DNA of 64,000 bases from Draconibacterium sp. (GCA_047975435.1 JBKEDN010000292.1:18513-82512), one strand, 5' to 3'. Counted from the stretch's first letter, positions 36,485 to 56,563 are shown. Program-made: numbers and translations. The notes: generated by a model from the sequence alone, not told the origin.

Positions 36485-36485
36485 G

Positions 36486-39185: not shown

Positions 39186-39223
39186 TATCAGTTGAAGAAC
39201 GTCCTACATTCGGTGCATCTCAT

Positions 39224-39255
39224 AAAAAAACCTTGAAGATTTTGATTCCTCAAGG
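39224..39255 (-). terminator. Rho-independent terminator after the lipocalin-like gene
   Basis: On the minus strand, accttgagg-aatcaaaat-cttcaaggt is followed by ttttttt. Confidence 0.5.
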
Positions 39256-39308
39256 TCAATAAGTTTATGATATAAACCGAATTTCTGGTAAAACCAAAGA
39301 AAGTCCGC

Positions 39309-39755
39309 TTAATCCATTCGAACATATTTTTCGATGTTGCAATTGTTTTTATCATAATTACCATTTTTGTCAAGTGGAGAAAACAGGTAAACCTGATAAA
39401 GTGTGTCTCCCTTTATTTCGAGATACTGTTGCACTTTCTTTCCCAGAAAGTTGGGAACATTGTGATAGAGCACTTCTTCTGTATAAACATGCCCGGATAA
39501 ATCGTAAGTCCCTCCTCCGTAATTGTTGATAAGTTGCCCACCATTGACACTTTTGCCAACAAACATAAAATATTTATCTGACCAGGTTTTGAGTTGTTCG
39601 CCATTGGCCTGATCCAGGATTGAGATTCTACTTTGTCCGTTTCGGACTAATTCCTGACTGATAAGTTTCCATGTTCCGTTGAGTTTTGTTTTATCGCTTT
39701 TAAAGCTGAAAAGAGCAAAAACTACTGCTAGTAAAATAAGTGTTTTGAGTCTCAT
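39309..39755 (-). CDS. Secreted lipocalin-like small protein (DUF4488-like impression)
   Basis: Signal peptide MRLKTLILLAVVFALFSF, then LNGTWKLIS. The family call is tentative. Confidence 0.5.
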   Translation of the reverse strand: MRLKTLILLAVVFALFSFKSDKTKLNGTWKLISQELVRNGQSRISILDQANGEQLKTWSDKYFMFVGKSVNGGQLINNYGGGTYDLSGHVYTEEVLYHNVPNFLGKKVQQYLEIKGDTLYQVYLFSPLDKNGNYDKNNCNIEKYVRMD

Positions 39756-39852
39756 AATAATATTAAGTTAGATAATTATTTGGTTGGCTTGAAGATAGGT
39801 TTTATTTTTTGTTAATCACAGGTTATATAACATATAAGGCCGCTTTATCTTC

Positions 39853-39887
39853 ACAACAAAAAGCAGCCTCCGAAATACAGAGGCTGC
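39853..39887 (-). terminator. Rho-independent terminator closing the efflux operon
   Basis: On the minus strand, gcagcctc-tgtatttcg-gaggctgc is followed by tttttgttgtg. Confidence 0.6.
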
Positions 39888-39960
39888 AGCATTTCTCATC
39901 GCGTCCTTTTACAGGTTCCGGAAATTAACATCGGTAAACGGGATGAGATATCTAACCTAA

Positions 39961-40680
39961 CTAAACAAATTTTTCGCGTTTTTGCAGATTAAACAAACCA
40001 TAGAGAGTAAACACCAACATACCGATTGCAAGGAAAATCCTGTTCTTCCGGATGGTGCCTTCCCAAATTACTTCGTTCAGGTTGTTGGGAATATCAAAAG
40101 GGTTCAGAAAAGGATTCCACTGCATATTCCGAATAGAATCCTGCAAAATCAGTATTGCAACTCCGATAAGTACCATTGTTACAGCAGTTCCGTTACCATT
40201 TTTTACCACTGTGGAAAACATAAATGCCATGGATCCAAGAAAAACGATCGGAAACATTAACTGATACGCCATCTCCATTATATTCACTTTGTATAACAAT
40301 ACGGAGGCTAAACCCGAGAACAAACCGATAATTAAAAATACCAGTGTGTAAATCATTACCAACCGTACCAGCCATACTTTGTACCGGTAATTAGGTATTC
40401 CAAACAGAATTTCGAGCATCCGGGAATCGTCATCGTTTTGAATCCCGAAAACTGACGGATAAAAGATGAGCAATATTCCGGGAAAAATCAGCAATTCATA
40501 AACTGTTCCATCGGTAATTGTATTGTTTTCCAATACCCGGGTAACGGCAACAAAAAGGAAAAATGCCAAAGCTGCCAGCAAAAACCAGATAAAGCGGTTT
40601 GCAAAAATGATCTTCAGATTGTAACGGATCATCTTAATCAGGATAAATAACCTGTTTTTTATATTGAATTTTGAAGCCAT
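39961..40680 (-). CDS. ABC-2 type membrane permease
   Basis: About 6 hydrophobic helices. Start trimmed to MASKFNIK (ATG 40680), 1 nt after the stop of the RND-ABC fusion gene. Confidence 0.6.
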   Translation of the reverse strand: MASKFNIKNRLFILIKMIRYNLKIIFANRFIWFLLAALAFFLFVAVTRVLENNTITDGTVYELLIFPGILLIFYPSVFGIQNDDDSRMLEILFGIPNYRYKVWLVRLVMIYTLVFLIIGLFSGLASVLLYKVNIMEMAYQLMFPIVFLGSMAFMFSTVVKNGNGTAVTMVLIGVAILILQDSIRNMQWNPFLNPFDIPNNLNEVIWEGTIRKNRIFLAIGMLVFTLYGLFNLQKREKFV

Positions 40681-40681
40681 T

Positions 40682-43600
40682 TTAAACAAAATCTTTAAGT
40701 AAGCATAAATAAGCATCTTCCAGATGAGGAGAAACATTTACCGCATCGGGGGTTGGTTTGTCTTTTGCCAGGCAGCGGACTTTTATATTTTCTCCGTCGC
40801 GCATGTGGTGAACAATCATTTGCTTATTGGCCATGTTATCAAATTCTTTTGCCGGAACCGAAAATTGCCATACAAATTTGTTTCCCATATTAACCATATC
40901 GCTAGGTGTCCCGAAATACTTCAGGTCTCCACGGTTAATTACGGCAACCTGGTTACATGAGCTCGAAATATCTTCGATAATATGCGTTGAGAAGATTACA
41001 ATTCTCTCGCGGCTGAGTTCTACCAAAAGGTTACGGAAACGGATACGTTCGCGCGGGTCGAGGCCAGCTGTTGGCTCATCAACAACCAAAATACGCGGCA
41101 AATTCAATAATATTTGTGCAATTCCGATTCGTTGTTTCATACCCCCTGAGAAGGATCCGATTTTATCATTCCGGCGTTCGTACATATGCACGTTTTTCAG
41201 TACATAGTCCAAACGCTCGTTTCTTACTTTGGTATCCTTTATTCCTTTTAGGATTGCCTGGTAATCGAGAAATTCCCATGCCGACATGTTTTCGTAAGTT
41301 CCGAAAGCCTGTGGCAGATAGCCGATCAATCCCTGCAACTCCTCCCGATACTTTTGTGTATCAAGTCCGTTGATCCAGATTTTCCCGTAGCTCTGTTCCA
41401 GAATACCAGTAATAATTCGCATCATGGTTGATTTTCCGGCCCCGTTTGGCCCCAGTAGCCCAAACATTCCGGTTTTTATTTCAAGCGAAACTCCGTTTAG
41501 CGCCCTGAAAGGTTTCTTACGTTTACCAACCACCGGTATCTGGCGTATCATTGTAAAATAGGCACGGCGCAAACCACCAAGCCGTCCTTCAATACGGGCA
41601 ATGTTCAGGTTCTTTTTCTGAATGTATTCGGCCGAGCTGTAAATAATCAGCAGGATGTACCAGATGATACCTACAAAAATCACCATTCCGAGGTTATCCC
41701 AGTTTTTGAAGAAAACGAAAAGAAAGACTGCCGGAACTCCCCAGAAAATCAGGTTATAAATCCACTTGTTCAATTTCAGGTACAGGTTTTTCCCACTTGC
41801 TTCGTGTTTATTAATAAGCACCTGCTGTACCGGAATCCGTAAGAACATAAGAAAGAAAAATACACCATGAGAAAGAATCCACATCCAAAGCCCGCTTTCC
41901 AGGTAAAAGAATGTAAAATAGACCAGGAATCCGAAAAGAGGCAGTTGCCAAACCATATCGTAAAAATCGCGCAGATGTTTGTAATCGTTTGTTAATCCGG
42001 CACGTTCCCTTATTTTAATTCCCGATTTCCACTCGCGAACAAAACGAGAGTCGCGGTCATAAATCTTTACCAGTTTTTGTACTTTGATCCGGATTGGCTC
42101 ATTTTCGTCGATTACCTTTTCATTGGCTTGGCGAAGGCTTGTCATTACAAATGCAACAACACCCGGCACCAGAATAATGAGGAGCATAAAATCGAGTAAT
42201 TGCCAGAGAAAACTATCTACTTCGAAGTAAACCAGCACTGCACCAACAACAAAAACAGTCAGCATTCCGGCCTTTAAACCCCAATGCAACGATTTTATCC
42301 AGTTTAGCGAATTTTCAAGCCCTGCATAAAGCGTTGGAATAAACACCAGTGTAAGTATTGTACTTAACGAAAGGCCCCCAATTACGGTAATGGCAAACGG
42401 TGCCCCAATAGCGCCAACATATTCAGCCTGTCCCATTGCCAGCGGGAATAAAGCTACAATGGTTGTAATGGCGGTAATAAGAATCGGGCGTACACGCGAA
42501 AGTCCTGCTGTCATTAATGCCCTTGACTTTCGGAAGCCACGTTTTCGAAGAATATTGGTATAATCGATCAGTATAATACCATTGTTTACCACCACCCCAA
42601 TCAGAATAATAAAACCCATTAAAGTGTTGGCATTGAAAAGACTGTTCCCGGTAAAAATAAGTGCCAGGAAAGAACCGATGGCTGCCAGCGGAATCGAGAA
42701 CATCAGTACAAATGGTGTTGAAAGCGATTCGAAAACCGAAGCCAGAATCATCAGGATCAGAATAAAGGCGGCGGCAATCAGAAATTTGAATTCGGAGTAC
42801 TGGTCTTCTTCATGTATAACCTGTACCGCCACTCCCGGAGGCAATTTGTATGCCCCGATAATGTCGTCGATTTCAAGCCGGTAAGCCTCCAGCAGATCTT
42901 TTGAATCTTCTGCTTCACTCACAAAACGGTAATTCAGTTCGATCTGTTTTTCCTGGTTTACACGTGTTATACTGGCCATTCCCTGGGCATATACCAGGTC
43001 TGCCAGGTCCTGCAATTCATAAGTGGCCCCCTGGTTATTACTAATTTGCAGGCGGCGCAAGTCTTCAATTCCTTTTTGCGAATTATCTTCTTCTTCCTCC
43101 CCTTCCGGAAGCTTCTCCTTTATTACAATTTCATATTCTTCTGTTCCTTGTTTGAAATTTACTCCCGAAGTAAATTCACTTGTAAAAGTTCGAAGGTCGG
43201 ATGAGATATTATTTAGTGTAACTCCGTATTCAGTAAGTAAAAGCTGATTAAAAAAGAGGTGCACTTCGGGCCGGTTCCGCGATACACTCACATTGGCCCG
43301 GCGGATTGATTCGAGATCTTCGATGTAATAAAGCAAATCTTCAGCAACGCCTTTCATTACGTCAAAGTTTTCTCCTTTGATAACAATGCGTTCCTGGTTA
43401 CTTCCAATTCCCATAAACTGGGCAAATCCCTGTGATCCGGAGCGTCCTCCTCCGCCACCACCTCCGCCACCGCGGAAACTGGAGCTGGAAGTAGGCGCCT
43501 CCAGGCTAATCTCTGCCTGTGAAATACCTTTTACACGATCTTCCACATCTTTCTTTATTTCGGCAATGCTACGGTCGTCAATGTCTTTGTAATCGTCCAC

Positions 43601-45415
43601 CAGAATAAAGGTCAGAATTGCTTCTTCTTCCTCAATCTTTGAAATCAGGTCTTTCTTTTCCTTTACATCTTCCAACCGGCTTTCCACCTCGGCAACAACC
43701 TTGTCGGTTGCTTCGAGTGTTGAACCGGTGGGCATGGTAACATACACCGAGAATTGTGTTTCTTCCACTTCGCTCAGGTTGTTTACACTTACTGCCAGCA
43801 CAATAAATACGGTTAGGAAGAATACAACGATTGCCCCGATAATGGTTTTTCCCGGAACACGCATACTTGCTTTCAGTAATAAAATGTAAATCTGAATGAT
43901 GCGGTTATTCGTCGTTACTTTCTCGTAAAATATGTTGTGCTGCCGTTTGCCTTTTAAGAGCAAATGTGCGCCCATTGGTATTAGCAACAGGGCAACAAAC
44001 AGCGAAACCATGAGCGTTGAAATAATGGAAACCCCCACATGATTTCCCAGCAGTTTTACCATGTAATCGGTAGAGAATACAAAAGGCAGAAAAACAGTGA
44101 TGGTGGTAAGCGTAGCAGCTAAAATAGAACGCCATACTTCCTGAGTTCCCTGTGTAACAGACTTTTCGGGGCTCATGTGATTCCCCGATAAGCGATAAAT
44201 GTTCTCCAGTACCACAACACTGTTGTCGAGCAGCATCCCGATTGCCAAAACCAAGCCTACCAGTGTTAAGCTGTTCAGCGAAATATTAAAAGCATAAAAC
44301 AGGTTGAAGGCAGTAAAAACCGAGATGGGCATTGCCAGCGCAATAAACGATACAATTCGCATGTTTTTGAGGAACATCCACAAAACAAAAATTGCAAGTA
44401 AACCACCCACCAATGCCAGGTTAATAATCTGATCGATATTTTTCTCCATCGTTTCGGCCAGGTTAGTTTGCACTACAATCTCCACATCTTTTGATGCCAG
44501 CTTTTCATTCAATGCCGCTATCTGGTCCTGTACTTTATGCGACAAATCGATAAGATTGGCCTGCGAGTCGCTTACCAATAACATCGAAACCGCATCGAGC
44601 CCGTTTATACGACTAATGGAAGTCTCTTCCTTTACACCAAAAAACACATCGGCAACATCTTTTAAAAAGATCGGACCGTCGGCCACCACAATATTTTCGA
44701 TGTCTGAAACATTGTCGTACTCTGCCGTTACATGTACAAAGTATTTCTTATCCGACTCGTGCAAATAACCTGCAAAAGTGCGGTTTTGCGAGTTTCCGGA
44801 AATAGCACTACTAATTTGCGCCGGGGTGATTCCGTAGGCTTCGCAGGCAGCAGCATCGTAGGTAACTTCTATCGAGCGCTCTTTCCCTCCGTAAACCGAA
44901 ACAGAGGCTACTCCGTCAACATTTTCGATTTCTGAAGTTATTTCCTGGTCAACAATATTACGAACGCGGTCAACACCACCACTCCCTCGAACCTGCAATT
45001 CCATAAACTGGTTGGTGAGTTGCTCAATATCCACTTTGTTAACCACCACAACAAAATTATCGTCAAGACTGGCACTTGCCATGTCAATCTTTTCCTGCAA
45101 TTTCAGGAATGTATATTTAAAGTTGACGTTTTGTTTGAAATTAACCTGAATGGAAGCCGACTGATTATTAATAAACGACTCCATGCTTTCAATGCCTTCC
45201 ATGGTGCCAATGGCACCTTCAATCGGGATCACTGCCTGGTTTTCCATGTATTTTGGATCTACCTGGGTGCGCGACTGAATCTGCACATAAAGCATGGGCA
45301 GTTCGGCATTGGGCATTAATTCCACCGGAAGCCTTTTATAGGAGATATAACCAAGCATGGTTAACCCTAAAAAGAGCATACTGATGAATATTTTTCTATG
45401 TATGATGAATTTCAT
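40682..45415 (-). CDS. RND (AcrB-type) efflux permease covalently fused to an ABC transporter ATP-binding domain
   Basis: Single 1577-aa ORF. The N-terminal ~1075 aa have RND topology and the TM4 motif IGMLLDNSVVVLENI. The C-terminal part has Walker A GLLGPNGAGKST, a Q-loop (YLPQ), the signature FSGGMKQR, Walker B LVVDEPTAGLD and an H-loop (FSTHII). Confidence 0.85.
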   Translation of the reverse strand: MKFIIHRKIFISMLFLGLTMLGYISYKRLPVELMPNAELPMLYVQIQSRTQVDPKYMENQAVIPIEGAIGTMEGIESMESFINNQSASIQVNFKQNVNFKYTFLKLQEKIDMASASLDDNFVVVVNKVDIEQLTNQFMELQVRGSGGVDRVRNIVDQEITSEIENVDGVASVSVYGGKERSIEVTYDAAACEAYGITPAQISSAISGNSQNRTFAGYLHESDKKYFVHVTAEYDNVSDIENIVVADGPIFLKDVADVFFGVKEETSISRINGLDAVSMLLVSDSQANLIDLSHKVQDQIAALNEKLASKDVEIVVQTNLAETMEKNIDQIINLALVGGLLAIFVLWMFLKNMRIVSFIALAMPISVFTAFNLFYAFNISLNSLTLVGLVLAIGMLLDNSVVVLENIYRLSGNHMSPEKSVTQGTQEVWRSILAATLTTITVFLPFVFSTDYMVKLLGNHVGVSIISTLMVSLFVALLLIPMGAHLLLKGKRQHNIFYEKVTTNNRIIQIYILLLKASMRVPGKTIIGAIVVFFLTVFIVLAVSVNNLSEVEETQFSVYVTMPTGSTLEATDKVVAEVESRLEDVKEKKDLISKIEEEEAILTFILVDDYKDIDDRSIAEIKKDVEDRVKGISQAEISLEAPTSSSSFRGGGGGGGGGRSGSQGFAQFMGIGSNQERIVIKGENFDVMKGVAEDLLYYIEDLESIRRANVSVSRNRPEVHLFFNQLLLTEYGVTLNNISSDLRTFTSEFTSGVNFKQGTEEYEIVIKEKLPEGEEEEDNSQKGIEDLRRLQISNNQGATYELQDLADLVYAQGMASITRVNQEKQIELNYRFVSEAEDSKDLLEAYRLEIDDIIGAYKLPPGVAVQVIHEEDQYSEFKFLIAAAFILILMILASVFESLSTPFVLMFSIPLAAIGSFLALIFTGNSLFNANTLMGFIILIGVVVNNGIILIDYTNILRKRGFRKSRALMTAGLSRVRPILITAITTIVALFPLAMGQAEYVGAIGAPFAITVIGGLSLSTILTLVFIPTLYAGLENSLNWIKSLHWGLKAGMLTVFVVGAVLVYFEVDSFLWQLLDFMLLIILVPGVVAFVMTSLRQANEKVIDENEPIRIKVQKLVKIYDRDSRFVREWKSGIKIRERAGLTNDYKHLRDFYDMVWQLPLFGFLVYFTFFYLESGLWMWILSHGVFFFLMFLRIPVQQVLINKHEASGKNLYLKLNKWIYNLIFWGVPAVFLFVFFKNWDNLGMVIFVGIIWYILLIIYSSAEYIQKKNLNIARIEGRLGGLRRAYFTMIRQIPVVGKRKKPFRALNGVSLEIKTGMFGLLGPNGAGKSTMMRIITGILEQSYGKIWINGLDTQKYREELQGLIGYLPQAFGTYENMSAWEFLDYQAILKGIKDTKVRNERLDYVLKNVHMYERRNDKIGSFSGGMKQRIGIAQILLNLPRILVVDEPTAGLDPRERIRFRNLLVELSRERIVIFSTHIIEDISSSCNQVAVINRGDLKYFGTPSDMVNMGNKFVWQFSVPAKEFDNMANKQMIVHHMRDGENIKVRCLAKDKPTPDAVNVSPHLEDAYLCLLKDFV

Positions 45416-45481
45416 TTTTCTTCGTTTTGCGGAAGTTTTTAAGTAAAAACAGTAAGACTTCCCTTTCTTACATTCATCAAC

Positions 45482-48400
45482 CTATTCAGTAACTTCGGCC
45501 GCCGGTCTATCTTCCGGCTTTACAAACATTTCCCTTACGCGGTCGAGCACATCGTACACACAAGGAATTACAACCAATGTTAACAGCGTTGATGTAACCA
45601 AACCTCCTACAACTGCCAGGGCCATTGGTGAGCGCAACGAGGCGCTTTCGCCAAAACCAACTGTAAGCGGTAGCAAAGCAAGAATAGTGGTTAAACTGGT
45701 CATGATAATTGGGCGGATACGTTGTTGCCCCGCCTGCAGGATTGCCTGTACACGGTCCATTCCGTCTTTTCGCAACTGGTTAATCCGGTCCACCAAAATA
45801 ATGGAGTCGTTTACCGCTATCCCCACCAGCATAATCACCCCAATAATTGCCATTATATTGATGGTTTTCCCGAGGATGAAAAAGATGAGGATTGTTCCTA
45901 CAACCGCAAGTGGAATGGTAAGCAGAATTGTAAACGGATGTATCAGCGACTCGAACTGGGAAGCCAACACCATATACACCAAAATAATTGACAACAGAAG
46001 CGCAAAGGCCAGGTTATCCAGCGATTCCTGTCTTTTTTCTTCTTCACCGGTTACCATAATCCGATAATTGGGCTGTAAGTCGATACCGGCAGTAGCTTCT
46101 CGAATTTCTTTTGAAACATGGTCGAGTGCAAAGCCATTCTCCATCTGAGCAGTTACTTTTCCCAGCCGGTTTTGGTTTCTGCGAATAATTTCTTTAGGCG
46201 AAACACCGTAAGAAATATCGGCGATTTCATTTAAACGAAATACCTGATCGCCCGAGGTGATAAGAAATGAATTTATCTCATCAATCCCTTTTTCGGGAAC
46301 CTTAATGGTAATGTCCTGCATTTCGCCGTTTCTTTCCAGTTCACCGGCTTCTTTTCCTTCCAGTTGTTCCTGTATTTGGCTGATAACGGTAGCGATGTTG
46401 ATCCCGTAAATTCCGGCACGCATCCTGTCCACTTTTATTTCCACTTCCGGCGCGCCGTCTTCAATCGATGTTTTTATGTTGAAAAGACCATTGATTCCCT
46501 GCATTTTTTCTTTTACCTGGTTCACAACGCTTTCAATTTCATCCATTTCTTCACCCCGTACTTCTACAACCACCGGAGCATCTTCTGTTCCCAGTATGGA
46601 TTGTAGCGCACTCTCTTCCTGAGAGAAACTAAGTTCCAGCCCTTCGATATTGGCGGTAAGATTATCGAGTGTTTTTACAATACTTTCGGTAGATACTGTG
46701 GCATCGTTTTTCAGAATAACTTTTAATTCTGCCGTATTTTCACCCTGGAAAACAGTACTTGCATCGCCTGTAATTCCGGTTGACGGGCCTGCCTGCGAAT
46801 ATATCGTTGCCAGATTTTCACCCAGATAATCGATCAGTATATTCTCAATATTTTTAACGGTTGACTCCGTACGTTCCAGTTTTGTACCCTCCTGCAATTT
46901 CAATTCAACCGTTAACTCGCGGGTTTCGGTTTTTGGCATAAACTCGGTCCCGATAAATGGAATCAGCAAGGCCGATGCGGCTATTGAAGCAGTTGTAATA
47001 ATAATAACCAACCATTTTGCTTTTAGTACTTTTTCGAGAAAACGCCCGTAACCTCCCATTTTTATGGATTTGGCCTTTAGAGGCGCTTTTTTGTTCCGGT
47101 AAAAACGATGGTACATCATCGGTATCAGAAAAATGGCAACTACCAGCGACGAGATCAAAGAGAAAGCTACTGTCCATGCCTGGTCTTTAAATAATTCGCC
47201 CGATGCACCGTGCAGATATACGATGGGCAGGAATACAATAATGGTAGTAAGTGTTGATGCGGTAATTGCTCCTCCCACCTGTGCTGTTCCGGAAATGGCC
47301 GCTTCGCGCACACTCATCCCGTTTTCGTGGTTTCGGAAGATATTCTCCATAACAACAATGGCGTTATCTACCAGCATACCGGCGCCCAGTGCAAGCCCGC
47401 CCAAAGTCATAATATTGATGGTGAGGTGGTTAAAGTACATCAGGTTGAAAGTGGCAATAATCGATATCGGAATTGCAACACTTACAATTAATGTGGTTCC
47501 AACTCTTCTCAGGAAAAGGAAAAGAATAAAAACTGCCAATAAAATACCGATGAGTGCTGTTTCCTGCACTTCGCCGATGGCGCTGCTGATAAAACGTCCC
47601 TGGTTGGTTACCACCGTTAGTTTATAACCGGGCAATGCTTTTTCGATGGAAACCAAAGCTTCGTTGATCTGCTCCACCGATTTTACGGTATTGTATTTTG
47701 TTTCTTTAAAGATTGACAGGCCCACACAGCGTTCTCCGTTAATGTGTACAATGTTGGTGGGCTTTTTATTTCCTACATAAACCCGGGCTACATCTTTCAA
47801 ATAAACCGGGGCCATCTCACTGCTTGAATTTTGCCCGGTTGTTTCACTTGAAACAGCTTTGTAGCCTACAATCAGGTTTTCAAAATCTTCGATCGACTGC
47901 AACATCGAAACCCCTTTTACAATGTATTGGGTTCCCATATCAGTAATACGGCCTCCGGAAACATTCCGGTTGAAATTCTCAATCCGGCTCGAAACTTCGT
48001 CCATCGTAAGTCCCTGTGCTTCTAAACGATACGCATCGGTTTCAATAATTATTTCGCTTTCTTCCTGGCCCGATAGTTCTACTTCGGCAACACCTTCCAA
48101 ACGCACCAATTCGTTACGGATGTAGTTTTCGGCTACCTTCCGTATTTCATTCATATCGGTAATTTCATTGTGTGTAAGGCCAATGAGCATCACCGGAGTA
48201 GTATTCGGGTCGTGTTGGGTAATCTTCAGTTCGTCTATTTCTGAATTTTGGGTAAGTGTATTCAGCGCTTTTTGCAGGTCGAGAAAAGCCTCGTCCATAT
48301 CTTTGTTCCATGCATATTCCACGGTAATTTGTGCCGAGCCAACGCGCGAAACGGAAGTTACCTGAATCACATCAGACTGGCGGATTGCCAAGGCTTCGAT

Positions 48401-48601
48401 GTTCTCCACAAACTGTTTTTCCATTTCTTCGGGCGGCCTTTCACCCGAAGTCACTTCCACAAAAATGCGGGGAGAATTCAGGTCCGGGAAAAGGTCAACT
48501 CCCAGTTTATCGTACGAAATATAGCCCAGGAGTACAACTCCCAATACTACCATCAGCACGGTAACCGGATAGTTAACAGAAAATTGAGTTAATTTCTTCA
48601 T
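45482..48601 (-). CDS. RND (AcrB/AcrD/AcrF family) efflux permease
   Basis: 1039 aa with 12-TM RND architecture and the TM4 motif GAGMLVDNAIVVMENI. Confidence 0.92.
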   Translation of the reverse strand: MKKLTQFSVNYPVTVLMVVLGVVLLGYISYDKLGVDLFPDLNSPRIFVEVTSGERPPEEMEKQFVENIEALAIRQSDVIQVTSVSRVGSAQITVEYAWNKDMDEAFLDLQKALNTLTQNSEIDELKITQHDPNTTPVMLIGLTHNEITDMNEIRKVAENYIRNELVRLEGVAEVELSGQEESEIIIETDAYRLEAQGLTMDEVSSRIENFNRNVSGGRITDMGTQYIVKGVSMLQSIEDFENLIVGYKAVSSETTGQNSSSEMAPVYLKDVARVYVGNKKPTNIVHINGERCVGLSIFKETKYNTVKSVEQINEALVSIEKALPGYKLTVVTNQGRFISSAIGEVQETALIGILLAVFILFLFLRRVGTTLIVSVAIPISIIATFNLMYFNHLTINIMTLGGLALGAGMLVDNAIVVMENIFRNHENGMSVREAAISGTAQVGGAITASTLTTIIVFLPIVYLHGASGELFKDQAWTVAFSLISSLVVAIFLIPMMYHRFYRNKKAPLKAKSIKMGGYGRFLEKVLKAKWLVIIITTASIAASALLIPFIGTEFMPKTETRELTVELKLQEGTKLERTESTVKNIENILIDYLGENLATIYSQAGPSTGITGDASTVFQGENTAELKVILKNDATVSTESIVKTLDNLTANIEGLELSFSQEESALQSILGTEDAPVVVEVRGEEMDEIESVVNQVKEKMQGINGLFNIKTSIEDGAPEVEIKVDRMRAGIYGINIATVISQIQEQLEGKEAGELERNGEMQDITIKVPEKGIDEINSFLITSGDQVFRLNEIADISYGVSPKEIIRRNQNRLGKVTAQMENGFALDHVSKEIREATAGIDLQPNYRIMVTGEEEKRQESLDNLAFALLLSIILVYMVLASQFESLIHPFTILLTIPLAVVGTILIFFILGKTINIMAIIGVIMLVGIAVNDSIILVDRINQLRKDGMDRVQAILQAGQQRIRPIIMTSLTTILALLPLTVGFGESASLRSPMALAVVGGLVTSTLLTLVVIPCVYDVLDRVREMFVKPEDRPAAEVTE

Positions 48602-48672
48602 AATAAAAAGTTAGAAGTTGGAAGCATGAAGTTGGAAGTGTTGACGCTTCTCTGTTCCGGCTTCCGGCTTTA

Positions 48673-49749
48673 TTATAAAATCACTTTTACTTTCGAGTTA
48701 TCGCGGAGTGTTTCGTAGCCTTTAATGATCAAACGATCGTTTGGAGCAAGTCCTTCCACAATCTCAATTTCATCCTGGTTGGAAATTCCGGTGGTAATAC
48801 GGCGGTCGTCGGCAGAACTGTTGCGGCCAACTACAAAAACATATTTTCCGCGCGAACCCGACATGATTATATTTTTTGGAATAACGACTACACTGTCTTT
48901 TTGTGCTGTAATAATGTTTGCTTTTATAAACATTCCCGGACGAAGTTTCAATTCCGGATTATCGATCTGCAGTTTTCCGGCAAAGGTGCGTGTTTCGTCG
49001 CTGATTACCGGCGACAATTCGCTAACGTGCCCCTGTAAAGTATCTTCGGTGAGGGTGTAATTGGTGATCAGCACATTCTGTCCCACTTCTATTTCTGATA
49101 TATTTTTTTCCGGAAGATTTATTTCCACGTACATCTGGTCGTAACTCATCAGTTTTACCATCGATTGTCCCGATGCAACACGTACACCTTCAGTATAATA
49201 TGGGAGTTCAACAATAACCCCGGCAAAAGGAGCAACAACCTTCATTTTGGCCAACTGAATCTGAGCATTCTCGTAACTGTTTTGTGCATCGATCGACGAA
49301 ACTTCCGAATTTCTCAACTCGCGAAGCGTAACACCGCCTTTTTCGTACAGCGATTTTTGTTTGTCGTATTCCTGCTGAGAAATTTCAAGATTGAGTTTTT
49401 TCGATTCGAGCGAAAGTCCGTTCAGGTACTCTTCATTTTCGAATTTAATAATCGCCTGTCCTTTTTCAACACGGTCGCCTAATTTGAATTTACGCCCAGT
49501 TTTGGGGTTCACCTGCAATTTATAATCTCCCTGAATTTCGGAAGTAAGTTCGGTTTCCGACTTTGCTTTGGCAGTACCCGTGGTAGTTATAAATTGCTGA
49601 ATGCTTTTTAACTTGATACCCTCAACTGAAACCGGAACAGCAAGGTCGCTGCTCTCAGACGATGGCTGATTGTTACACGAAATGGCGCTTACAACAATAA
49701 AAGCCAGGTAAAGTAATTTTATATTCTTCATTTTTCTACGTTTTTTCAA
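48673..49749 (-). CDS. Efflux periplasmic adaptor (membrane fusion protein), lipoprotein
   Basis: Lipobox VVSAISC, a coiled-coil hairpin region, and position between the TolC-like and RND genes. The start may be the internal MKNIKLL (ATG 49731). Confidence 0.88.
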   Translation of the reverse strand: MKKRRKMKNIKLLYLAFIVVSAISCNNQPSSESSDLAVPVSVEGIKLKSIQQFITTTGTAKAKSETELTSEIQGDYKLQVNPKTGRKFKLGDRVEKGQAIIKFENEEYLNGLSLESKKLNLEISQQEYDKQKSLYEKGGVTLRELRNSEVSSIDAQNSYENAQIQLAKMKVVAPFAGVIVELPYYTEGVRVASGQSMVKLMSYDQMYVEINLPEKNISEIEVGQNVLITNYTLTEDTLQGHVSELSPVISDETRTFAGKLQIDNPELKLRPGMFIKANIITAQKDSVVVIPKNIIMSGSRGKYVFVVGRNSSADDRRITTGISNQDEIEIVEGLAPNDRLIIKGYETLRDNSKVKVIL

Positions 49750-49752
49750 TGG

Positions 49753-51258
49753 TTATTTTTTGTTCTCGGTGAGATAAAGTTCGGCGGGTAAAATTCGTTC
49801 TCCTTTTTCAAAATCGTACAACGACTGGATTTTCAGGTTTAGCAATTCAATTTTATAATTGATAAGCGCCTGGCTAAAAGAGATCTTTTTTTCCGACAAC
49901 TGTGTTTGATACAGATTCAAATCCATACCGGTCAGGTCGCCGTTTTCGTAACGCTCCAGGTTAATCTCGTAGGTTAACTGTGCGTTGCGTTCGTTTTGCT
50001 TGGCAATATCAATTTGTGTTAGCTGGTTTTGTAAGTTGCGATACACCTGGCGTATATCAACAACAATCTGCTTTTTCTCTTCCGAAAGGTTGAGTTCCTG
50101 CGAACGGATCGATGCTTCGGCAGCGGCAATACGTGCTTTCTTTTCTCCCCAGTCGAAAATCGGGATATTAAAGCTCACACCTACCGACGGGCTTTTGGTT
50201 GGGTTTTGGTAAATATTACCCAGCTTTTTGTTGTCGCCGGTAATCCCGAAACGCAGGTTCATTTCACCTTTAAATTCGTTTAAGGCTTTGGTTTCAATTA
50301 AGCTGAACTGACTATTTTCCACATCAATTTCGCGCTGACGAAGTTCCATCCTCGAATCCAGTCCGTTTTGAATAGCCAGGTCGAGATCAATTTTTACAGG
50401 ATTGGCACTGATGTCGGTCAGAATCATAATATCCTGGTACAAATCCATACCCAGGTAAAGCTTTAACTGATCTTTGGCATTTTCGAAACTTACCTCATCG
50501 TTTTGTACACTCGATTTGGCCGTTGAAAGGTTCAACTCTGCCTGGTATTGTTCTTCTTTGGCCGCTAATCCTGCATTTACTTTATTAACAATAATATCGT
50601 AGCTTTTCTGGGTATTTGTAAGCTCTTCTTTTGCAATGTTCAGGTTCATTTGCGCCATGTAAACATTGTAGAAATACTGGGTTACATTTCGCTCCAGGTT
50701 TAATCGCTGAATGGCATAACTGATGTTGGCATTTTCAAGGTTCAACTCCAGTTGTTTGAGCTCCATCTTTAAACGGTTATAGGTAAAAAGCGGCTGATTC
50801 AGGTTCAAATACAGGTTGTTAAAAAATACTTCGCTCCTGTTTTCGTCGGCAGAAAGGGTTGACTTACTGCTCGACCAGCCAAACTCGTTGGTAAGAGAGA
50901 TGGTTCCATCGGTTGGAAGAATAGGTTGAGAAATGGTAAACAAGGTGTTTGACTCAATATTCTCGTTGGTGTACCATTCCGAAAAACGGCTGTCGAACCG
51001 GCGTTGGTTACTGTAGTTTACCGGATTTACTTCGAGCGAGAACCGTGATTTTAATGCTGCACGCTGTGCTTCCAAACTCTTCTGATAGCGCTCCAGGTTT
51101 AGCAACGAAAGTTGAAGGTCGGGGCTGCCCGTTTCGGCTATACTCAAAGCTTTTGCAAGGGTAAGCGCTTCCTGCGCCCGGCTTGTAAAAACACTCGTTG
51201 CCAGAAACAGCAGCAAAAGAATGATTTTCTGAAATTGTTTAATTTTGATTTTTTTCAT
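49753..51258 (-). CDS. TolC family outer membrane efflux protein
   Basis: About 500 aa with duplicated coiled-coil repeats and a signal peptide. Start trimmed to MKKIKIKQF (ATG 51258) to avoid overlap with the upstream gene. Confidence 0.85.
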   Translation of the reverse strand: MKKIKIKQFQKIILLLLFLATSVFTSRAQEALTLAKALSIAETGSPDLQLSLLNLERYQKSLEAQRAALKSRFSLEVNPVNYSNQRRFDSRFSEWYTNENIESNTLFTISQPILPTDGTISLTNEFGWSSSKSTLSADENRSEVFFNNLYLNLNQPLFTYNRLKMELKQLELNLENANISYAIQRLNLERNVTQYFYNVYMAQMNLNIAKEELTNTQKSYDIIVNKVNAGLAAKEEQYQAELNLSTAKSSVQNDEVSFENAKDQLKLYLGMDLYQDIMILTDISANPVKIDLDLAIQNGLDSRMELRQREIDVENSQFSLIETKALNEFKGEMNLRFGITGDNKKLGNIYQNPTKSPSVGVSFNIPIFDWGEKKARIAAAEASIRSQELNLSEEKKQIVVDIRQVYRNLQNQLTQIDIAKQNERNAQLTYEINLERYENGDLTGMDLNLYQTQLSEKKISFSQALINYKIELLNLKIQSLYDFEKGERILPAELYLTENKK

Positions 51259-51280
51259 TTCTATGCTTGATTTAATTGAC

Positions 51281-54200
51281 TTACTGTTCAACAATTTTCA
51301 CCGCATCGGCAAACACCATTCTTAGCTGTGATTTATTTGTTAATTCAATTTTTGCGGTGTCGGGCGAAAAATAAAAGGTTCCCAAATGGTTCCAGCCCGC
51401 CTCGGCATTTTGATAATCCAGTGCAGCTTCTTCCGTTCCGTCGTCGGCGTGAATATTAAAATTGTAGTTTCCTTTTTCCTCATTCCGGTCGCGGCCACGC
51501 ATCCGTGTTTTATACAAATGAAAATACACATCGTAATAGCCTGCTTTTGCAACCGGCACATTCCATGTTGCCACCTGGTCGCCTTCACCACCTTTTATGT
51601 AATATCCCGAGCGGATGTACTCACCATAAAATTCGTCGTTTGTTACGGCAGTCCAACTGGTATTTGGCCTCCACCAGTTAACTCCCTGGTATCTGCGGGT
51701 TTGCTCTTTTTCTTTCACAATCAGCTTTTCGAGTAAACTTACCTGCTCGTTCCTGGTAACCGAGAATTCGGGATCTTCGTTATCTACCACTATTTCGTTT
51801 GGCAGTTTAAACTGAACCGGTACATCGGTAACAAGCTCTTTTTCTTCGGGCCTTGCTTTTGGATCTTCCTCAATCTCGCGGAAAAACTCCATCATGGTTT
51901 GCGGAATATTTTTCGAGGTCATAGTATTGATTATAACCATTCTTGGGTCTCCTTCAAAAAGGTAACTCAAATCTTTGGTTTGATGTGCTTCGAGGAAAAC
52001 AAGTTTGGTGATCGCATCGTCGCTACCGCCGCCCCGGGGGCCAAAACCTCCGCCTCCTCCCAGTCGGAACGTAAGTTTTACCATTCCATCCACATCCGAA
52101 AAGTTGGTTATTTTGGTACTGATCATTGTTTGCATGGCTTCACCACTTTTAGCCTTTACCGCCTTTACCGGGGCAATTAAATAACCCGGAAGCGATTTGG
52201 CTTTAAACCAGTCGTCCATAATCGGCACCAGCTGAATACCAAAAGCTTCGTTAATTTGCTTGTCAAATTCTTCAAAACTAATGTTCTTGAATTTGTTCTC
52301 AGCCAGAATTTTGCGCAGAAAATCTTCAAATTCGGTTTGCCCGGCCTTCCACTGTATCTGTGAGAAAAGTACATCACCTTTTAACTTAATAACATTGTCA
52401 ACAATATCTTGCTGATCCGGATCGGCCAGTACCTGTTCAAAAGTTTCGTCCTGCAGCGCAATATTGGCCAGCACATCTTCACTTTCACCATTCATATTCC
52501 CCATAAAGATGGAGCGCATATCAAGGTTTTGGCTTTTCAGGTAGGCTTCAAATACCCGGTTGGTAATTGGCCATCTGTCAGATTGGATATTGTTTTGAAA
52601 GTTGTATAGCATCGGGAAAATGTAATACGGGTTTCCCGTCTGTTGTACGGTCATTTCTCCCCTTCTGAAATTGCGGTTATCTTCCGTTTCCTCGGTAAAC
52701 TTTCTAAGAAATCCGTGCAACGACTGAATCTCTTTATCCTGATCGGTCATGTCATTTCCTCTTCCGCCCGGGCCGCCCCAGCGCCCCATAAATTCTTTTT
52801 GTTTTTTGAAGTCGGCTTCACGCATCATAAAACCTTTTTCGGCAATAAAAACCTGTTCGGGCTGAACTGCCTCCTGAATTGATGACCACATGCGACCATA
52901 GGTTTTAAACTGGGCCGGAACTTCTACAACTGACAGCCTTTTTTCGCTAAACTCCAGGTTATAGGTTCTTACAAAATCTTCGAAGCGCTCTTTTATAACC
53001 GCCGGAATTGTATCTTTTGACTCTTTAAACTCTTGCGAAAAATAATCGTGCCCGTCAATATACCAAAGGCCGAATTCTACCTTATCCCCTTCTATTTTCT
53101 TTTGTTTGTAATTCCCAATGGTTAGTGAAACCTGTGTTAGCGGATTTTCATTTTCAAAATTAAATTCTCCGGCCGAAACTTCGTTGATTACTCCCTGCGA
53201 TATCGCTTTCAGTCCGGGTGTTGTTTTTACTTTCAGTTCAAAACGGGTAAACTGTGGCTGATGCCAGCTCACATTCGTTGAACTATAGGTAACACCTGCT
53301 TTGGGATACCAGTTTGCCTCTTTGGTGAGCAACACGTATTCGGGCTCAATAAAAGCATAACGCTTGTCAACATTCAGCACAAACTTTCCATATTTTTGCA
53401 TCCGGGTTTCTTCGTCAATATCAAGGTAGCAGTAGGTTTCATCGATCGATCCTGAATAAGTAAAATCAATCAAGGTACTGTCGCCGGGCAATAGATTTAT
53501 TTTGTCAGAAATAATTACAAGTTGTTTGTCGCGCAGAAACGGCGTTGTTGTTCCGTTTATTTTAAGGTCCGAAATATCAAGCCCGCCGTTCAAACTAAAT
53601 ATCAGCTTATGAATGGGCTTTTTCGTATCGTTTAAAACCTTCATGTCAGAGCTCACCTCAATCGTTTTTCCTTTATGCGTAACATTTAATGCATTTGAAA
53701 CGACCGAAACTGAGGGCTCACTTACATATTTATTGTTGAGTTCAACAACCTCGCCCCTTATTTTCTCTGCATTTTTAAAATAATGAATATGATTAAATGC
53801 CAGGTAACCGGCACTACCAATAAAAATAACACCAAAGATTAACGAAAACCAGGTCATTGATTCGGATTGTGGCAGCCTTTTCAGCAGAAATATGGTTAGA
53901 AAAATAAAGCCGGCACCAAGTCCAAAATAGATTCCGCGATGGGCCAGAATTACCGCCAGGTTACCAAATCCAACTATATCGGAGCTCAACATCGGGATGT
54001 TAAAAGCCATATAATCGAAGATGTAGTAAAACTTATCCTGAATAAGAAAGAGGGTTATTCCGATGTAGCCAAGCACCAGTACAAATGTGATGGCTTGGTT
54101 GCGGATTAAAATCATAAACAGAAACGACAAGCCCATAATAAAAACCAGTGTAGGCACACTGATCAAAAGCAGATAAAATACATAGGCTGCCCAGTTTACA

Positions 54201-54622
54201 ACTGTTCCTTCGGTAAGCATATTAAAAACCAGCGCCAGAATAACCACTGCAATATTCAGCACCATAAAAACCTGCATATTGCCAAGTGTTTTCCCAATTA
54301 CGTATTCACCGTTGGTCATCGAACGCATATAAATCACTTCCGTGGTATCAAGTTTTTTATCGCGCTTTAAAAAATCGGATGCAAGAAAAACAGCAATTAC
54401 CGCCTGTGCCACGTTCAGGATCAACAGGTTGAAATAAGGGATAGCACTGGGAATGGCACGAATAGCCCATCCCTGGTCTCCACCTCCCTGGATAACCATC
54501 CCGAAGTTCATTCCGAATAAAACCACCAAAGAGAGTACGCTAAAAATCCGGAAAAACCAGCTGCGAAACAGTGTTTTTCGCTCGTACTTTGCAATAGAAA
54601 AAATATTGTGTAGCGATATCAT
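51281..54622 (-). CDS. ABC-2-like permease (about 7 TM) fused to a soluble domain of about 830 aa and unknown function
   Basis: The N-terminal ~280 aa are polytopic. The rest is hydrophilic, with Gly-rich stretches (GRWGGPGGRGND, LGGGGGFGPRGGGSDD). I found no HEXXH. The gene lies directly downstream of an ABC ATPase gene. Confidence 0.6.
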   Translation of the reverse strand: MISLHNIFSIAKYERKTLFRSWFFRIFSVLSLVVLFGMNFGMVIQGGGDQGWAIRAIPSAIPYFNLLILNVAQAVIAVFLASDFLKRDKKLDTTEVIYMRSMTNGEYVIGKTLGNMQVFMVLNIAVVILALVFNMLTEGTVVNWAAYVFYLLLISVPTLVFIMGLSFLFMILIRNQAITFVLVLGYIGITLFLIQDKFYYIFDYMAFNIPMLSSDIVGFGNLAVILAHRGIYFGLGAGFIFLTIFLLKRLPQSESMTWFSLIFGVIFIGSAGYLAFNHIHYFKNAEKIRGEVVELNNKYVSEPSVSVVSNALNVTHKGKTIEVSSDMKVLNDTKKPIHKLIFSLNGGLDISDLKINGTTTPFLRDKQLVIISDKINLLPGDSTLIDFTYSGSIDETYCYLDIDEETRMQKYGKFVLNVDKRYAFIEPEYVLLTKEANWYPKAGVTYSSTNVSWHQPQFTRFELKVKTTPGLKAISQGVINEVSAGEFNFENENPLTQVSLTIGNYKQKKIEGDKVEFGLWYIDGHDYFSQEFKESKDTIPAVIKERFEDFVRTYNLEFSEKRLSVVEVPAQFKTYGRMWSSIQEAVQPEQVFIAEKGFMMREADFKKQKEFMGRWGGPGGRGNDMTDQDKEIQSLHGFLRKFTEETEDNRNFRRGEMTVQQTGNPYYIFPMLYNFQNNIQSDRWPITNRVFEAYLKSQNLDMRSIFMGNMNGESEDVLANIALQDETFEQVLADPDQQDIVDNVIKLKGDVLFSQIQWKAGQTEFEDFLRKILAENKFKNISFEEFDKQINEAFGIQLVPIMDDWFKAKSLPGYLIAPVKAVKAKSGEAMQTMISTKITNFSDVDGMVKLTFRLGGGGGFGPRGGGSDDAITKLVFLEAHQTKDLSYLFEGDPRMVIINTMTSKNIPQTMMEFFREIEEDPKARPEEKELVTDVPVQFKLPNEIVVDNEDPEFSVTRNEQVSLLEKLIVKEKEQTRRYQGVNWWRPNTSWTAVTNDEFYGEYIRSGYYIKGGEGDQVATWNVPVAKAGYYDVYFHLYKTRMRGRDRNEEKGNYNFNIHADDGTEEAALDYQNAEAGWNHLGTFYFSPDTAKIELTNKSQLRMVFADAVKIVEQ

Positions 54623-54633
54623 CTTTTATTGAA

Positions 54634-55527
54634 TTAGGCGTTCGACCATTGATTTAATTTGTTTTCCATGAAATGAACATAGGCGTGTTCCAGGTTCGGG
54701 GCAATTGGTTTACCCTGGTAACCGTTAATGTCGTTGGCTACCACCTGAACCTCCCACCCTCCATCGATCGGAATGGTAGAGATTACCGGGTATTTTTCAT
54801 TTATTTCGAGGTATTCGTGTTCGGTGGCCTCAATCTGCCACACATTGCCTTCTGCTTCTTTAATCAGCTGTTCGGGCGAACCGGTAAATGCAAGTTTCCC
54901 TTGGTTAAGCAACGCCATATTGTCGCAGGTACTCGAAATATCTCCTACAATGTGCGTGGAAAGAATGATGATAACATCGCGTGTACTAATGGTCGAAAGC
55001 AGGTTGCGGAAACGGATACGTTCTTCGGGGTCGAGACCGGTTGTGGGCTCATCTACAATAATAACCTGAGGGTCGTTAATCAGCGCCTGAGCAATTCCCA
55101 GCCGCCGTTTCATACCTCCTGATAGTTTGTTGGCATTCCGGTCGCGGGCTTCAAAAAGCCCCACTTCTTCCAGCATCTGATCAACTGCCGTGCGGCGTGC
55201 TGCTCCGTTTTTCATTCCCGATAACCGAGCGGTATAATCCAGAAACTCATAAGTTTTCAACTTCGAAAAAAAGGCAAAATCCTGCGGAAGATAGCCCAGC
55301 ATCGAACGGATCTCCCTTCTGTTTTTTGACAACTCCAGATCGTTAAAAAACACTTTGCCGTTGGTTGGTTTCATCAAGGTAACCAATATTCGCATCAGGG
55401 TTGACTTCCCGGCTCCGTTGGGGCCCAGCAACCCGAACATCCCGTTGGGGATATCCAGATTCAGATTTTTAATGGCGTAGCTGCCACCTTTATAGATCTT
55501 GTTCAGATTTTCGATTCGTATTTGCAC
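54634..55527 (-). CDS. ABC transporter ATP-binding protein
   Basis: Walker A GLLGPNGAGKST, signature LSGGMKRR, Walker B IIVDEPTTGLD. It is a paralogue of the NBD fused to the RND protein. Confidence 0.92.
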   Translation of the reverse strand: MQIRIENLNKIYKGGSYAIKNLNLDIPNGMFGLLGPNGAGKSTLMRILVTLMKPTNGKVFFNDLELSKNRREIRSMLGYLPQDFAFFSKLKTYEFLDYTARLSGMKNGAARRTAVDQMLEEVGLFEARDRNANKLSGGMKRRLGIAQALINDPQVIIVDEPTTGLDPEERIRFRNLLSTISTRDVIIILSTHIVGDISSTCDNMALLNQGKLAFTGSPEQLIKEAEGNVWQIEATEHEYLEINEKYPVISTIPIDGGWEVQVVANDINGYQGKPIAPNLEHAYVHFMENKLNQWSNA

Positions 55528-55832
55528 AGCACTATCATAAGGTTAATAACTTGGTCTTTGACTGTAGAAGCCTACAATCGTTTAATCATGTTAGTCGAGA
55601 AAGGTGATTAAAATTACATTCAGAGGTCATTGAATGATTGATTATCTTTTCTCTATTCTCTAAATCATTGCTATCCGGTTAAAAGGAGAGATTACTTCGC
55701 TCTACTCTTTATCGGACAACAGGGAGATTTTACAGAAAATACAATCAGGCTATGACTATAAGCTGTAAACATGTTTGCGGTGCTAACGTTAAAGTACTTT
55801 CAGAAAAAGAAAACAGAAACTCCTGAAAAAAC

Positions 55833-56435
55833 TTAACGTTTCATAATCCCGTAGCAAATAATTTTCAGGATAATATCAACGCTCCGTTCCAGGTTAACAT
55901 CGCCATAATAACCGGCAGTAAGCGGCATTTCAAGGCCTTTGATAGCGGTTGTAATCCCAATTGCCGCTAAGTTAAAATCATAAATCTCGAACTCGTTTTT
56001 ACGAACACCTTCAATCAGAATTCGTTTGATCATCCTGATTTCATCCTGCTCGTATTTTATCTTTACTTCGTCGATAAAACCTACCGCTGTAATGTCGTTT
56101 TCGATGGCATGATAAAAATTAGCCAGGTTACGAAAGGTGGCCAGCTTTGTAAGAATATAGTCGCGCAGTTTATCTACCGGGTCGGTATTACGGTTGATCA
56201 CAATTTCAAGCTCATGAGCCAGAATTTCAACCTCTTTCATTATTACTGCCTGAAAAAGGTCTTCTTTACTTTTGAAATAGTAATACAACGAACTTTTCCC
56301 CTTACGCACTGCATTCGCAATATCGTCGAGTGTCGTTTTTTTAAAACCGTATTTACTGAAAATTTCGCGAGCGATTTTTAGGATGTTCTCGCGATTAGCA
56401 TCTCTTTTGTTCCCGTTTTTGCCAAGATCGTGCAT
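55833..56435 (-). CDS. TetR/AcrR family transcriptional regulator
   Basis: N-terminal HTH region ILKIAREIFSKYGFKKTTLDDIANAVRKGKSSLYYYFKSKEDLF. 200 aa, located upstream of the efflux genes. Confidence 0.85.
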   Translation of the reverse strand: MHDLGKNGNKRDANRENILKIAREIFSKYGFKKTTLDDIANAVRKGKSSLYYYFKSKEDLFQAVIMKEVEILAHELEIVINRNTDPVDKLRDYILTKLATFRNLANFYHAIENDITAVGFIDEVKIKYEQDEIRMIKRILIEGVRKNEFEIYDFNLAAIGITTAIKGLEMPLTAGYYGDVNLERSVDIILKIICYGIMKR

Positions 56436-56563
56436 TGCCTGTTATTTAACGAAAAATATCAACAAATATAATTATTTATTTTGCCGGAAGAACTTTTTAG
56501 AATTTTAAAATCGAAAAGACGATAAAATACCCAACTCTCTCAAAACCCCTATTTTATTCATTT

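Follow-up and report, generated by a model that had tools for sequence, protein, structure and literature searches.

Tripartite efflux is taught as being powered either by pumps of the resistance-nodulation-division (RND) family, which use the proton gradient, or by ATP-binding cassette (ABC) pumps, which use ATP. In mycobacteria, the RND protein MmpL7 and DrrABC, an ABC-2 exporter with two different permeases, are both needed for the export of the lipid phthiocerol dimycocerosate (PDIM). This work describes a gene cassette of Draconibacterium sp. in which a TolC/adaptor/RND module and ABC-2-type components are encoded side by side, and in which one of two RND permeases is continued in the same reading frame by an ABC nucleotide-binding domain (NBD). 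The cassette lies in a stretch of 64,000 nt (GCA_047975435.1, JBKEDN010000292.1:18513-82512), which is referred to here as the window. In the direction of transcription, its seven genes encode a stand-alone ABC-2-type ATPase (ATPase1), a large putative ABC-2 permease with an M1-aminopeptidase-like domain (ABC2/M1), a TolC-like outer-membrane factor, a periplasmic adaptor (MFP), a first RND permease (RND1), the fusion of a second RND permease to an NBD (RND2-NBD) and a small putative ABC-2 permease (ABC2s). The nearest named relatives are Maribellus species (Prolixibacteraceae).

Several described systems share parts of this inventory. MdtABC-TolC and MuxABC-OpmB likewise combine a single adaptor and an outer-membrane factor with a pair of adjacent RND genes, and the MdtB2C heterotrimer is a feature of MdtABC. 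The MdtB and MdtC models are among the best NCBIfam matches of the cassette RNDs, but with 398/407 and 252/246 bits they stay well short of the cut-offs of 1584/1774. MdtABC has neither an ATPase nor ABC-2 partners, whereas the two cassette RNDs are 27% identical to each other and lack equivalents of AcrB D408 and K940. MmpL7-DrrABC also combines an RND protein with a DrrA-type ABC-2 transporter, and the drrA model (TIGR01188) is in the top two matches of both cassette NBDs, at 193 and 167 bits and thus short of its cut-off of 312. In contrast to the cassette, MmpL7 and DrrABC are separate, unfused proteins that work with no TolC or adaptor, and no biosynthetic genes are linked to the cassette. 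A third likeness is to NosDFY and the ABCA proteins (type V): the cassette NBDs are most similar to those of ABCA1/7/4/3, to TM_1403 and to NosF, which are the nearest solved relatives of ATPase1. The large permease, labelled NosY-like in some databases, resembles ABCA proteins in joining an ABC-2-like membrane domain to a large extracytoplasmic domain. That domain has a predicted M1-aminopeptidase fold, unlike the beta-helix of NosD or the extracellular domain of ABCA proteins, and the cassette is additionally coupled to an RND pump. Finally, MacAB-TolC is an envelope-spanning assembly with an ABC ATPase, an adaptor and TolC, but MacB is a type VII protein (FtsX-fold) that contacts the adaptor itself, whereas the cassette has an RND pump and none of the eight proteins encoded by the cassette and the adjoining TetR-family gene matched FtsX or MacB_PCD in Pfam at E ≤ 0.001.

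The feature that sets the cassette apart is the RND2-NBD fusion, a single open reading frame (ORF) in which Pfam places ACR_tran at residues 2-1031 (E 2e-164) and ABC_tran at residues 1306-1450 (E 2e-27). Beyond TM12 of the RND body, two extra transmembrane (TM) helices form a hairpin, followed by a stretch, IRIKVQKLVKIY, that reads as a typical first NBD strand and is sited between the hairpin and an insertion with four TM helices; its L, V, K and Y do not vary among 12 orthologues. Only past this insertion do strand 2 and Walker A appear. Walker A, Q-loop, the SGGMKQR signature, the Walker B D-E pair and the H-loop are invariant in 23 sequences, the distant clade included. An AlphaFold model of the linker and NBD, built from a 23-sequence alignment (mean pLDDT 78.5), gave the same order of elements as the sequence reading, namely hairpin, strand 1, four-TM insertion and the rest of the NBD, with the insertion helices at model residues 118-132, 136-168, 172-199 and 203-228 and amphipathic helices flanking them. 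With this model, Foldseek matched TM_1403, LptB, NosF and ABCA NBDs; all matches were NBDs, and the six TM helices gave no informative match. The insertion varies among relatives. Orthologue L020 has two TM helices in place of four, and in a separate class of ~1390-1450 aa (P0170, P0188, P0196) the linker between RND and NBD is only ~100-140 aa, too short for the four-TM insertion to fit.

The fusion is real and not an assembly error, since it is shared by more than 100 independent clusters at 90% identity (1550-1580 aa, at least 79% identical to the C-terminal 538 residues used as query, Prolixibacteraceae) and since linker and NBD lie in an open frame in 25 of the 201 genomes of a sample taken at order level (200 other genomes and that of the window). 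These genomes belong to many families, and the protein measures ~1550-1640 aa where the gene is complete on its contig. The fusion is also old. In an exhaustive profile-free search, the same architecture was found in more than 35 clusters at 50% identity, down to 31% identity, and the source names of distant members include Latescibacterota, KSB1 and Gammaproteobacteria; when a distant member served as the seed, a second search added 855 further clusters in the distant clade. A plasmid search with the linker gave no match. An apparent triple fusion RND2-NBD-ABC2s of 1762 aa in locus L033 was rejected as an artefact, as a run of N spans the junction. In locus L128, which has Planctomycetota-type neighbours (PSD and PSCyt domains), the fusion is called at 1876 aa (L128:10001-15631) with a Sigma70_r4-like N-terminal extension, and two extra genes, one with Golvesin_C, stand between large permease and adaptor; the gene call may be at fault here, or the locus may represent another variant. 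All RND2 orthologues also have a Gly/Ser-rich insertion of ~19 aa in a periplasmic loop (window ~43420-43500) that varies in sequence and is missing from RND1.

To place the fusion in its genomic context, 18 loci were fetched and the window proteins were mapped onto each. The order ATPase1, ABC2/M1, TolC, MFP, RND1, RND2-NBD, ABC2s is identical in 14 loci of different families, with tight spacing and proteins that are 33-76% identical. Three loci of the distant clade (~30% identical) carry a six-gene version consisting of ATPase, Golvesin_C protein, MFP, RND1, RND2-NBD and small permease, with no TolC gene. Between them, the modules have a single adaptor and no more than one TolC, and no conserved biosynthetic or regulatory gene was found beside the cassette. 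Genes inserted between cassette genes occur at L025:12491-13585, L025:18543-19178 and L028:12020-13015 and leave the cassette genes undisrupted. They were considered as parts of the system and dismissed, as by eye they resemble selfish insertions (PDDEXK/YhcG-like, RhuM-like and REP-transposase-like).

Co-occurrence is equally strict. In the order sample, RND2-NBD and the large and small ABC-2 permeases were found in the same 24 of the 200 other genomes (25 with the window's own), and in a phylum sample of 400 other genomes the fusion and the large permease were found in the same 3, at cassette distance from each other; neither sample contained a discordant genome. Taken together, 27 of the 600 other Bacteroidota genomes have both fusion and large permease and 573 have neither. 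Orthologues of the small permease, which was searched in the order sample only, are single-copy and present in exactly the 25 of 201 genomes with the fusion. We therefore consider it somewhat more probable than its opposite, at roughly 0.55, that the seven-gene cassette is one functional envelope export system, a judgement made from sequence comparison. The earlier note on this DNA had already proposed, from the interleaving and the fusion, that the ABC and RND genes form one machine and not two adjacent pumps; the invariant order in 14 loci, the six-gene version of the distant clade and the perfect co-occurrence bear out that they belong to one system. Physical assembly into a machine, and the export of a lipid or polymer that the note also suggested, would be possible further features.

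The same note held that ABC and RND modules at unlinked positions in a relative would speak against a single machine. Such an arrangement was found once, in the closed genome G115, where the genes are spread over four loci, [ATPase1 + ABC2/M1], [TolC-MFP-RND1], [RND2-NBD] and [ABC2s], with all frames intact. Because every part is intact despite the scattering, we read G115 as retention of a functional set and as a map of its natural sub-modules, and we do not take it as a refutation. A different explanation is that separate pumps are kept together: an RND tripartite pump and one or two homodimeric ABC-2 exporters would handle one class of substrate or work one after the other, with no single complex, and the fusion would merely co-localise or co-regulate them. 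G115 fits this explanation in that its modules occupy four transcription units and TolC-MFP-RND1 stay together as a complete classical pump, and, as is usual for ABC-2 systems, each ATPase gene of the cassette lies beside a permease gene of its own. Separate pumps should, however, occur separately somewhere, yet discordant genomes number 0 of 600. A covalent fusion kept down to ~30% identity implies that proximity itself is selected, and a single adaptor and at most one TolC have to serve all modules. We regard separate pumps as possible but unlikely.

Several points nevertheless weigh against one functional system. Co-occurrence and conserved order prove shared selection and not a physical complex, and, as the genomes in the samples are relatives of one another, the counts overstate independence. 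Separate transcription of the modules is possible, as G115 demonstrates. In the distant loci L126 and L127, only RND2-NBD and the small permease are found within 10 kb, so that this pair may work without the rest, which the explanation by separate pumps would also accommodate. The ABC-2 assignment of both permeases is a tentative one from sub-threshold Pfam scores, and an RND heterotrimer is suggested by analogy, for paralogues that share only 27% identity.

RND1 and RND2 both match PF00873 over near the full profile length. The nearest solved chains of RND2 are MdtB and MdtF, with MdtB the best, whereas the NCBIfam model RND_permease_2 scores 624 and 434 bits, below its cut-off of 1250. RND1 orthologues are 53-64% identical and always stand immediately upstream of RND2. 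By analogy with MdtB and MdtC, the two paralogues would form a heterotrimer, a proposal that draws on the adjacency of their genes and on the single adaptor. Equivalents of AcrB D407 (TM4 Asp) and R971 (TM11 Arg) are kept in every RND1 and RND2 sequence, while the D408 position holds Asn in all RND1 and in 14 of 16 RND2 (Thr or Cys in the other two) and the K940 position (TM10) holds Asn in 30 of 30 sequences. The canonical proton-relay set (D407, D408, K940, R971) is thus incomplete in both RNDs. This loss, together with the six TM helices that tie the NBD to the RND body, could point to an ATP-assisted or ATP-driven RND, in which the fused NBD, as a dimer with a second NBD, would gate or drive the RND2 cycle via the TM linker, replacing or supplementing the proton relay, with the ABC-2 permeases as scaffolds. 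An ordinary RND of the same genome (contig C265:12385-15804, 1139 aa) has the identical D-N / N-N pattern, however, and belongs to a plain TetR-TolC-MFP-RND operon without an ATPase (C265:9193-15804). Because of this control, the missing D408 and K940 equivalents are best read from the alignments as a subfamily trait, and their loss was rejected as specific evidence of ATP drive. The TM4 Asp and TM11 Arg are moreover retained throughout, and a TM insertion that is variable or absent in some relatives argues against precise mechanical coupling through it. We judge ATP drive of the RND quite improbable.

The two ATPase domains themselves appear competent, as Walker A, Q-loop, signature, the Walker B Glu and the H-loop His are all present in both ATPase1 and the fused NBD. 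Within the genome, the fused NBD has its closest paralogue in ATPase1; the two are 41% identical and share GLLGPNGAGKST and ERIRFRNLL, in agreement with the paralogy that had been read from the sequence before. The GldA model TIGR03522 gave 186 and 175 bits, below its cut-off of 402.6. In the NBD tree, ATPase1 sequences of Bacteroidales and of the distant clade group together (support 93/83), and both NBD paralogues therefore predate the clade split. Rooting with the other ATPases of the genome produced very long branches and an unreliable root, for which reason a claim that the two NBDs are exclusive sisters was dropped.

Of the two permeases, the small one scores 20.9 bits with ABC2_membrane_3 (cut-off 31.6) and the large one 22.4 bits with ABC2_membrane_2 (cut-off 27.2). 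Neither has a PDB sequence match, and their mutual similarity is marginal. By eye, both show the ABC-2 pattern of TM1 and TM2 followed by a cytoplasmic E-x-T-x-E-like coupling segment. The large permease further matches Golvesin_C (E 1.5e-15) and, at 23.6 bits against a cut-off of 27.7, Peptidase_M1. Its residues ~300-950 adopt an M1-aminopeptidase-like fold in an AlphaFold model (pLDDT 71), and Foldseek with this model retrieved the M1 zinc aminopeptidases IRAP, ERAP1, tricorn factor F3 and PepN (E 1e-17 to 1e-14, ~650 columns, 10-12% identity). Beta-sandwich domains follow the M1-like fold, the last being Golvesin_C. Apart from its fusion to a membrane permease, the domain differs from these enzymes in its motifs: GXMEN is absent in 13 of 13 orthologues (the window protein and 12 others), and the only HEXXH among the same 13 is an HETKH in one orthologue, which does not align. 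Because GXMEN is absent and HEXXH is not conserved, the M1-like domain is read as a pseudo-enzyme that is predicted to be non-catalytic. A Gly-rich loop similar to that of RND2 is seen in the large permease at window ~52020-52065 and is not conserved outside the family. Additional copies of the large permease also exist: a second copy in genome G105 (C37:14331-17651) contains one in-frame TAA while an intact copy stands elsewhere in that genome, and G131 has two more distant paralogues that are 25-29% identical.

If the seven proteins do act as one export system, its core would be a TolC/adaptor/RND tripartite pump with two divergent RND paralogues, arranged as a heterotrimer on the MdtB/MdtC analogy. 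Past TM12, RND2 would continue through the two-TM hairpin into an ABC-2-type ATPase that is catalytically intact as judged by its motifs and that would be anchored at the membrane beside the RND body. Its obligatory companions would be the small six-TM permease, the paralogous ATPase1 and the seven-TM permease with its pseudo-M1 and Golvesin_C domains. At the cost of ATP, the ABC-2 part would pull an amphiphilic substrate out of the cytoplasm or the inner leaflet, or flip it, and ATP might perhaps also move the periplasmic domain of the large permease. The substrate would then be handed to the tethered RND trimer, which would use the proton gradient to expel it via adaptor and TolC. In its fullest form, this model has all seven proteins in one supercomplex, with an RND1(2):RND2(1) stoichiometry, the single fused NBD paired with ATPase1, and the small and pseudo-M1 permeases as a heterodimeric type V membrane domain, so that ATP would pay for extraction and the proton-motive force for expulsion through TolC. 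It would explain why both ABC modules always accompany the fusion, why the two NBDs are old paralogues and why every part is kept when the genes are scattered. Nonetheless, we put this physical form forward as a tentative proposal that is rather unlikely to hold in full.

One gene that had been counted into the operon does not belong to it. The earlier note described eight genes under a TetR regulator; the unit is seven genes, not eight, and TetR is a chance neighbour in this genome. A TetR orthologue (81-95% identical) is present in 12 of 12 congeners, all of which also have the cassette, and it is never beside the cassette, lying on other contigs or 86-287 kb away, so that, of 13 congeners, this genome alone has the two side by side. 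In G596 and G598, TetR adjoins the RNase R gene and the rest of the right-hand flank of the window, while the cassette has a different upstream neighbour. The RNase R gene of the window (56564-58750; RNB, CSD2 and S1 domains) is syntenic with TetR in congeners. Upstream of the cassette, TetR is also missing from all 14 loci of other families. Of the 305-bp gap between TetR and ATPase1, no more than the proximal ~110 bp can be aligned to the sequence that precedes ATPase1 in G596 and G598. Because only this part is conserved and TetR lies elsewhere in congeners, sequence comparison indicates that a rearrangement placed TetR beside the cassette, with a breakpoint between ~55640 and 55832. The cassette thus appears to carry its own leader, in which TAATTTTA comes close to the Bacteroidota -7 motif and is a candidate promoter element.

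A TetR-controlled eight-gene operon for xenobiotic efflux, with its operator in the gap, would be suggested by the position of TetR on the same strand 305 bp upstream, by the 10-bp palindrome AAACATGTTT at 55767-55776 and by a Bacteroidota-type -7 motif that precedes tetR at 56463-56470 and makes read-through possible. A search of 55528-55832 for the operator that had been expected there found no significant site, only this palindrome and weak inverted repeats, and by our own rough estimate, which was not computed, a 10-bp palindrome occurs in 305 bp by chance ~0.3 times. A sigma-70 promoter scan gave no more hits than shuffles, the sigma-70 model not being suited to Bacteroidota. Given the position of TetR in congeners and the partial conservation of the gap, control of the cassette by TetR is highly improbable.

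The features of the locus are listed in Table 1. The eight minus-strand ORFs given earlier were recovered in an ORF map at the same coordinates, and their domain content was confirmed with Pfam and NCBIfam. With the likeliest starts (ATG at 51258 for TolC, 49731 for the adaptor and 40680 for the small permease), the gaps from TetR to ABC2s are 305, 11, 22, 21, 71, 66 and 1 nt, so the small gaps and the large one hold as first described, and ABC2s starts 1 nt past the stop of RND2-NBD. The terminator named earlier is the strongest terminator-like site across 39200-57000; internal terminators that might split the cluster were looked for as well, and the 17 sites found are not enriched over the 18.5 expected in shuffles. 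The TolC-like protein has a signal-peptide-like N-terminus after M13. The adaptor scores 189.5 bits with TIGR01730, above the curated cut-off of 94.9, and is probably a lipoprotein, its N-terminus MKNIKLLYLAFIVVSAISC being lipoprotein-signal-like. On the left flank, window 36098-39185 encodes a Rieske / cytochrome b-multihaem fusion, whose position beside the cassette is not conserved in other genomes.

Table 1. Features of the cassette and its surroundings. Positions are counted within the 64,000-nt window; all cassette genes and the TetR gene are on the minus strand.
Feature	Position	Strand	Evidence
TetR-family gene	55833..56435	(-)	TetR_N, E 9e-15
Conserved leader, probable own promoter region of the cassette	55528..55640	(-)	Alignment with G596 and G598
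ATPase1, stand-alone ABC-2-type ATPase, 297 aa	54634..55527	(-)	ABC_tran, E 6e-32
ABC2/M1, large putative ABC-2 permease, 7 TM, 1113 aa	51281..54622	(-)	Pfam: Golvesin_C, weak Peptidase_M1 and ABC2_membrane_2
TolC-like outer-membrane factor	49753..51258 (longest ORF to 51294)	(-)	PF02321 (OEP), two repeats, E 1e-44
Periplasmic adaptor (MFP)	48673..49731 (longest ORF to 49749)	(-)	TIGR01730
RND1 permease, 1039 aa	45482..48601	(-)	PF00873 (ACR_tran), E 7e-223
RND2-linker-NBD fusion, 1577 aa	40682..45415	(-)	ACR_tran and ABC_tran in one frame
RND body of the fusion, residues 1-1039	42299..45415	(-)	Full-length PF00873 match
Two extra TM helices (hairpin) past RND TM12	42116..42298	(-)	AlphaFold model helices 2-26 and 30-60; conserved in orthologue alignment
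First NBD beta-strand IRIKVQKLVK, A-loop Tyr just past it	42059..42088	(-)	Model strand 71-80
Four-TM insertion (~170 aa) that separates NBD strands 1 and 2	41543..42046	(-)	AlphaFold model
Remainder of the NBD and C-terminal regulatory-like domain	40685..41509	(-)	Catalytic motifs; Foldseek
ABC2s, small six-TM putative ABC-2-type permease, 239 aa	39961..40680 (longest ORF to 40737)	(-)	Weak ABC2_membrane_3
Intrinsic terminator closing the cassette	39853..39887	(-)	10-bp stem (7 G-C pairs, 39863-39887) and T run

No description of an RND-ABC fusion was found in the literature searched. A 2021 review names ABC, RND and MFS as the inner-membrane transporter families of tripartite efflux, and a term search of its first 300,000 characters found no hybrid pump. 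What the present work contributes is the removal of TetR from the unit, the counts of perfect co-occurrence, the genome with scattered but intact parts, the distant version that lacks TolC, the proton-relay control and the predicted pseudo-M1 fold. Cultured carriers of the cassette include Maribellus luteus, Draconibacterium mangrovi, Mariniphaga anaerophila DSM 26910 and Tangfeifania diversioriginum DSM 27063. The putative pseudo-aminopeptidase on an ABC-2 permease is a further periplasmic module that calls for explanation. If the proposed supercomplex is true, the cassette would belong to a class that has yet to be described, that of dual-energy efflux pumps. If its parts assemble, it would show a physical coupling of extraction at the inner membrane to expulsion across the outer membrane, and would make the cooperation of two energy sources accessible to study in a natural setting.

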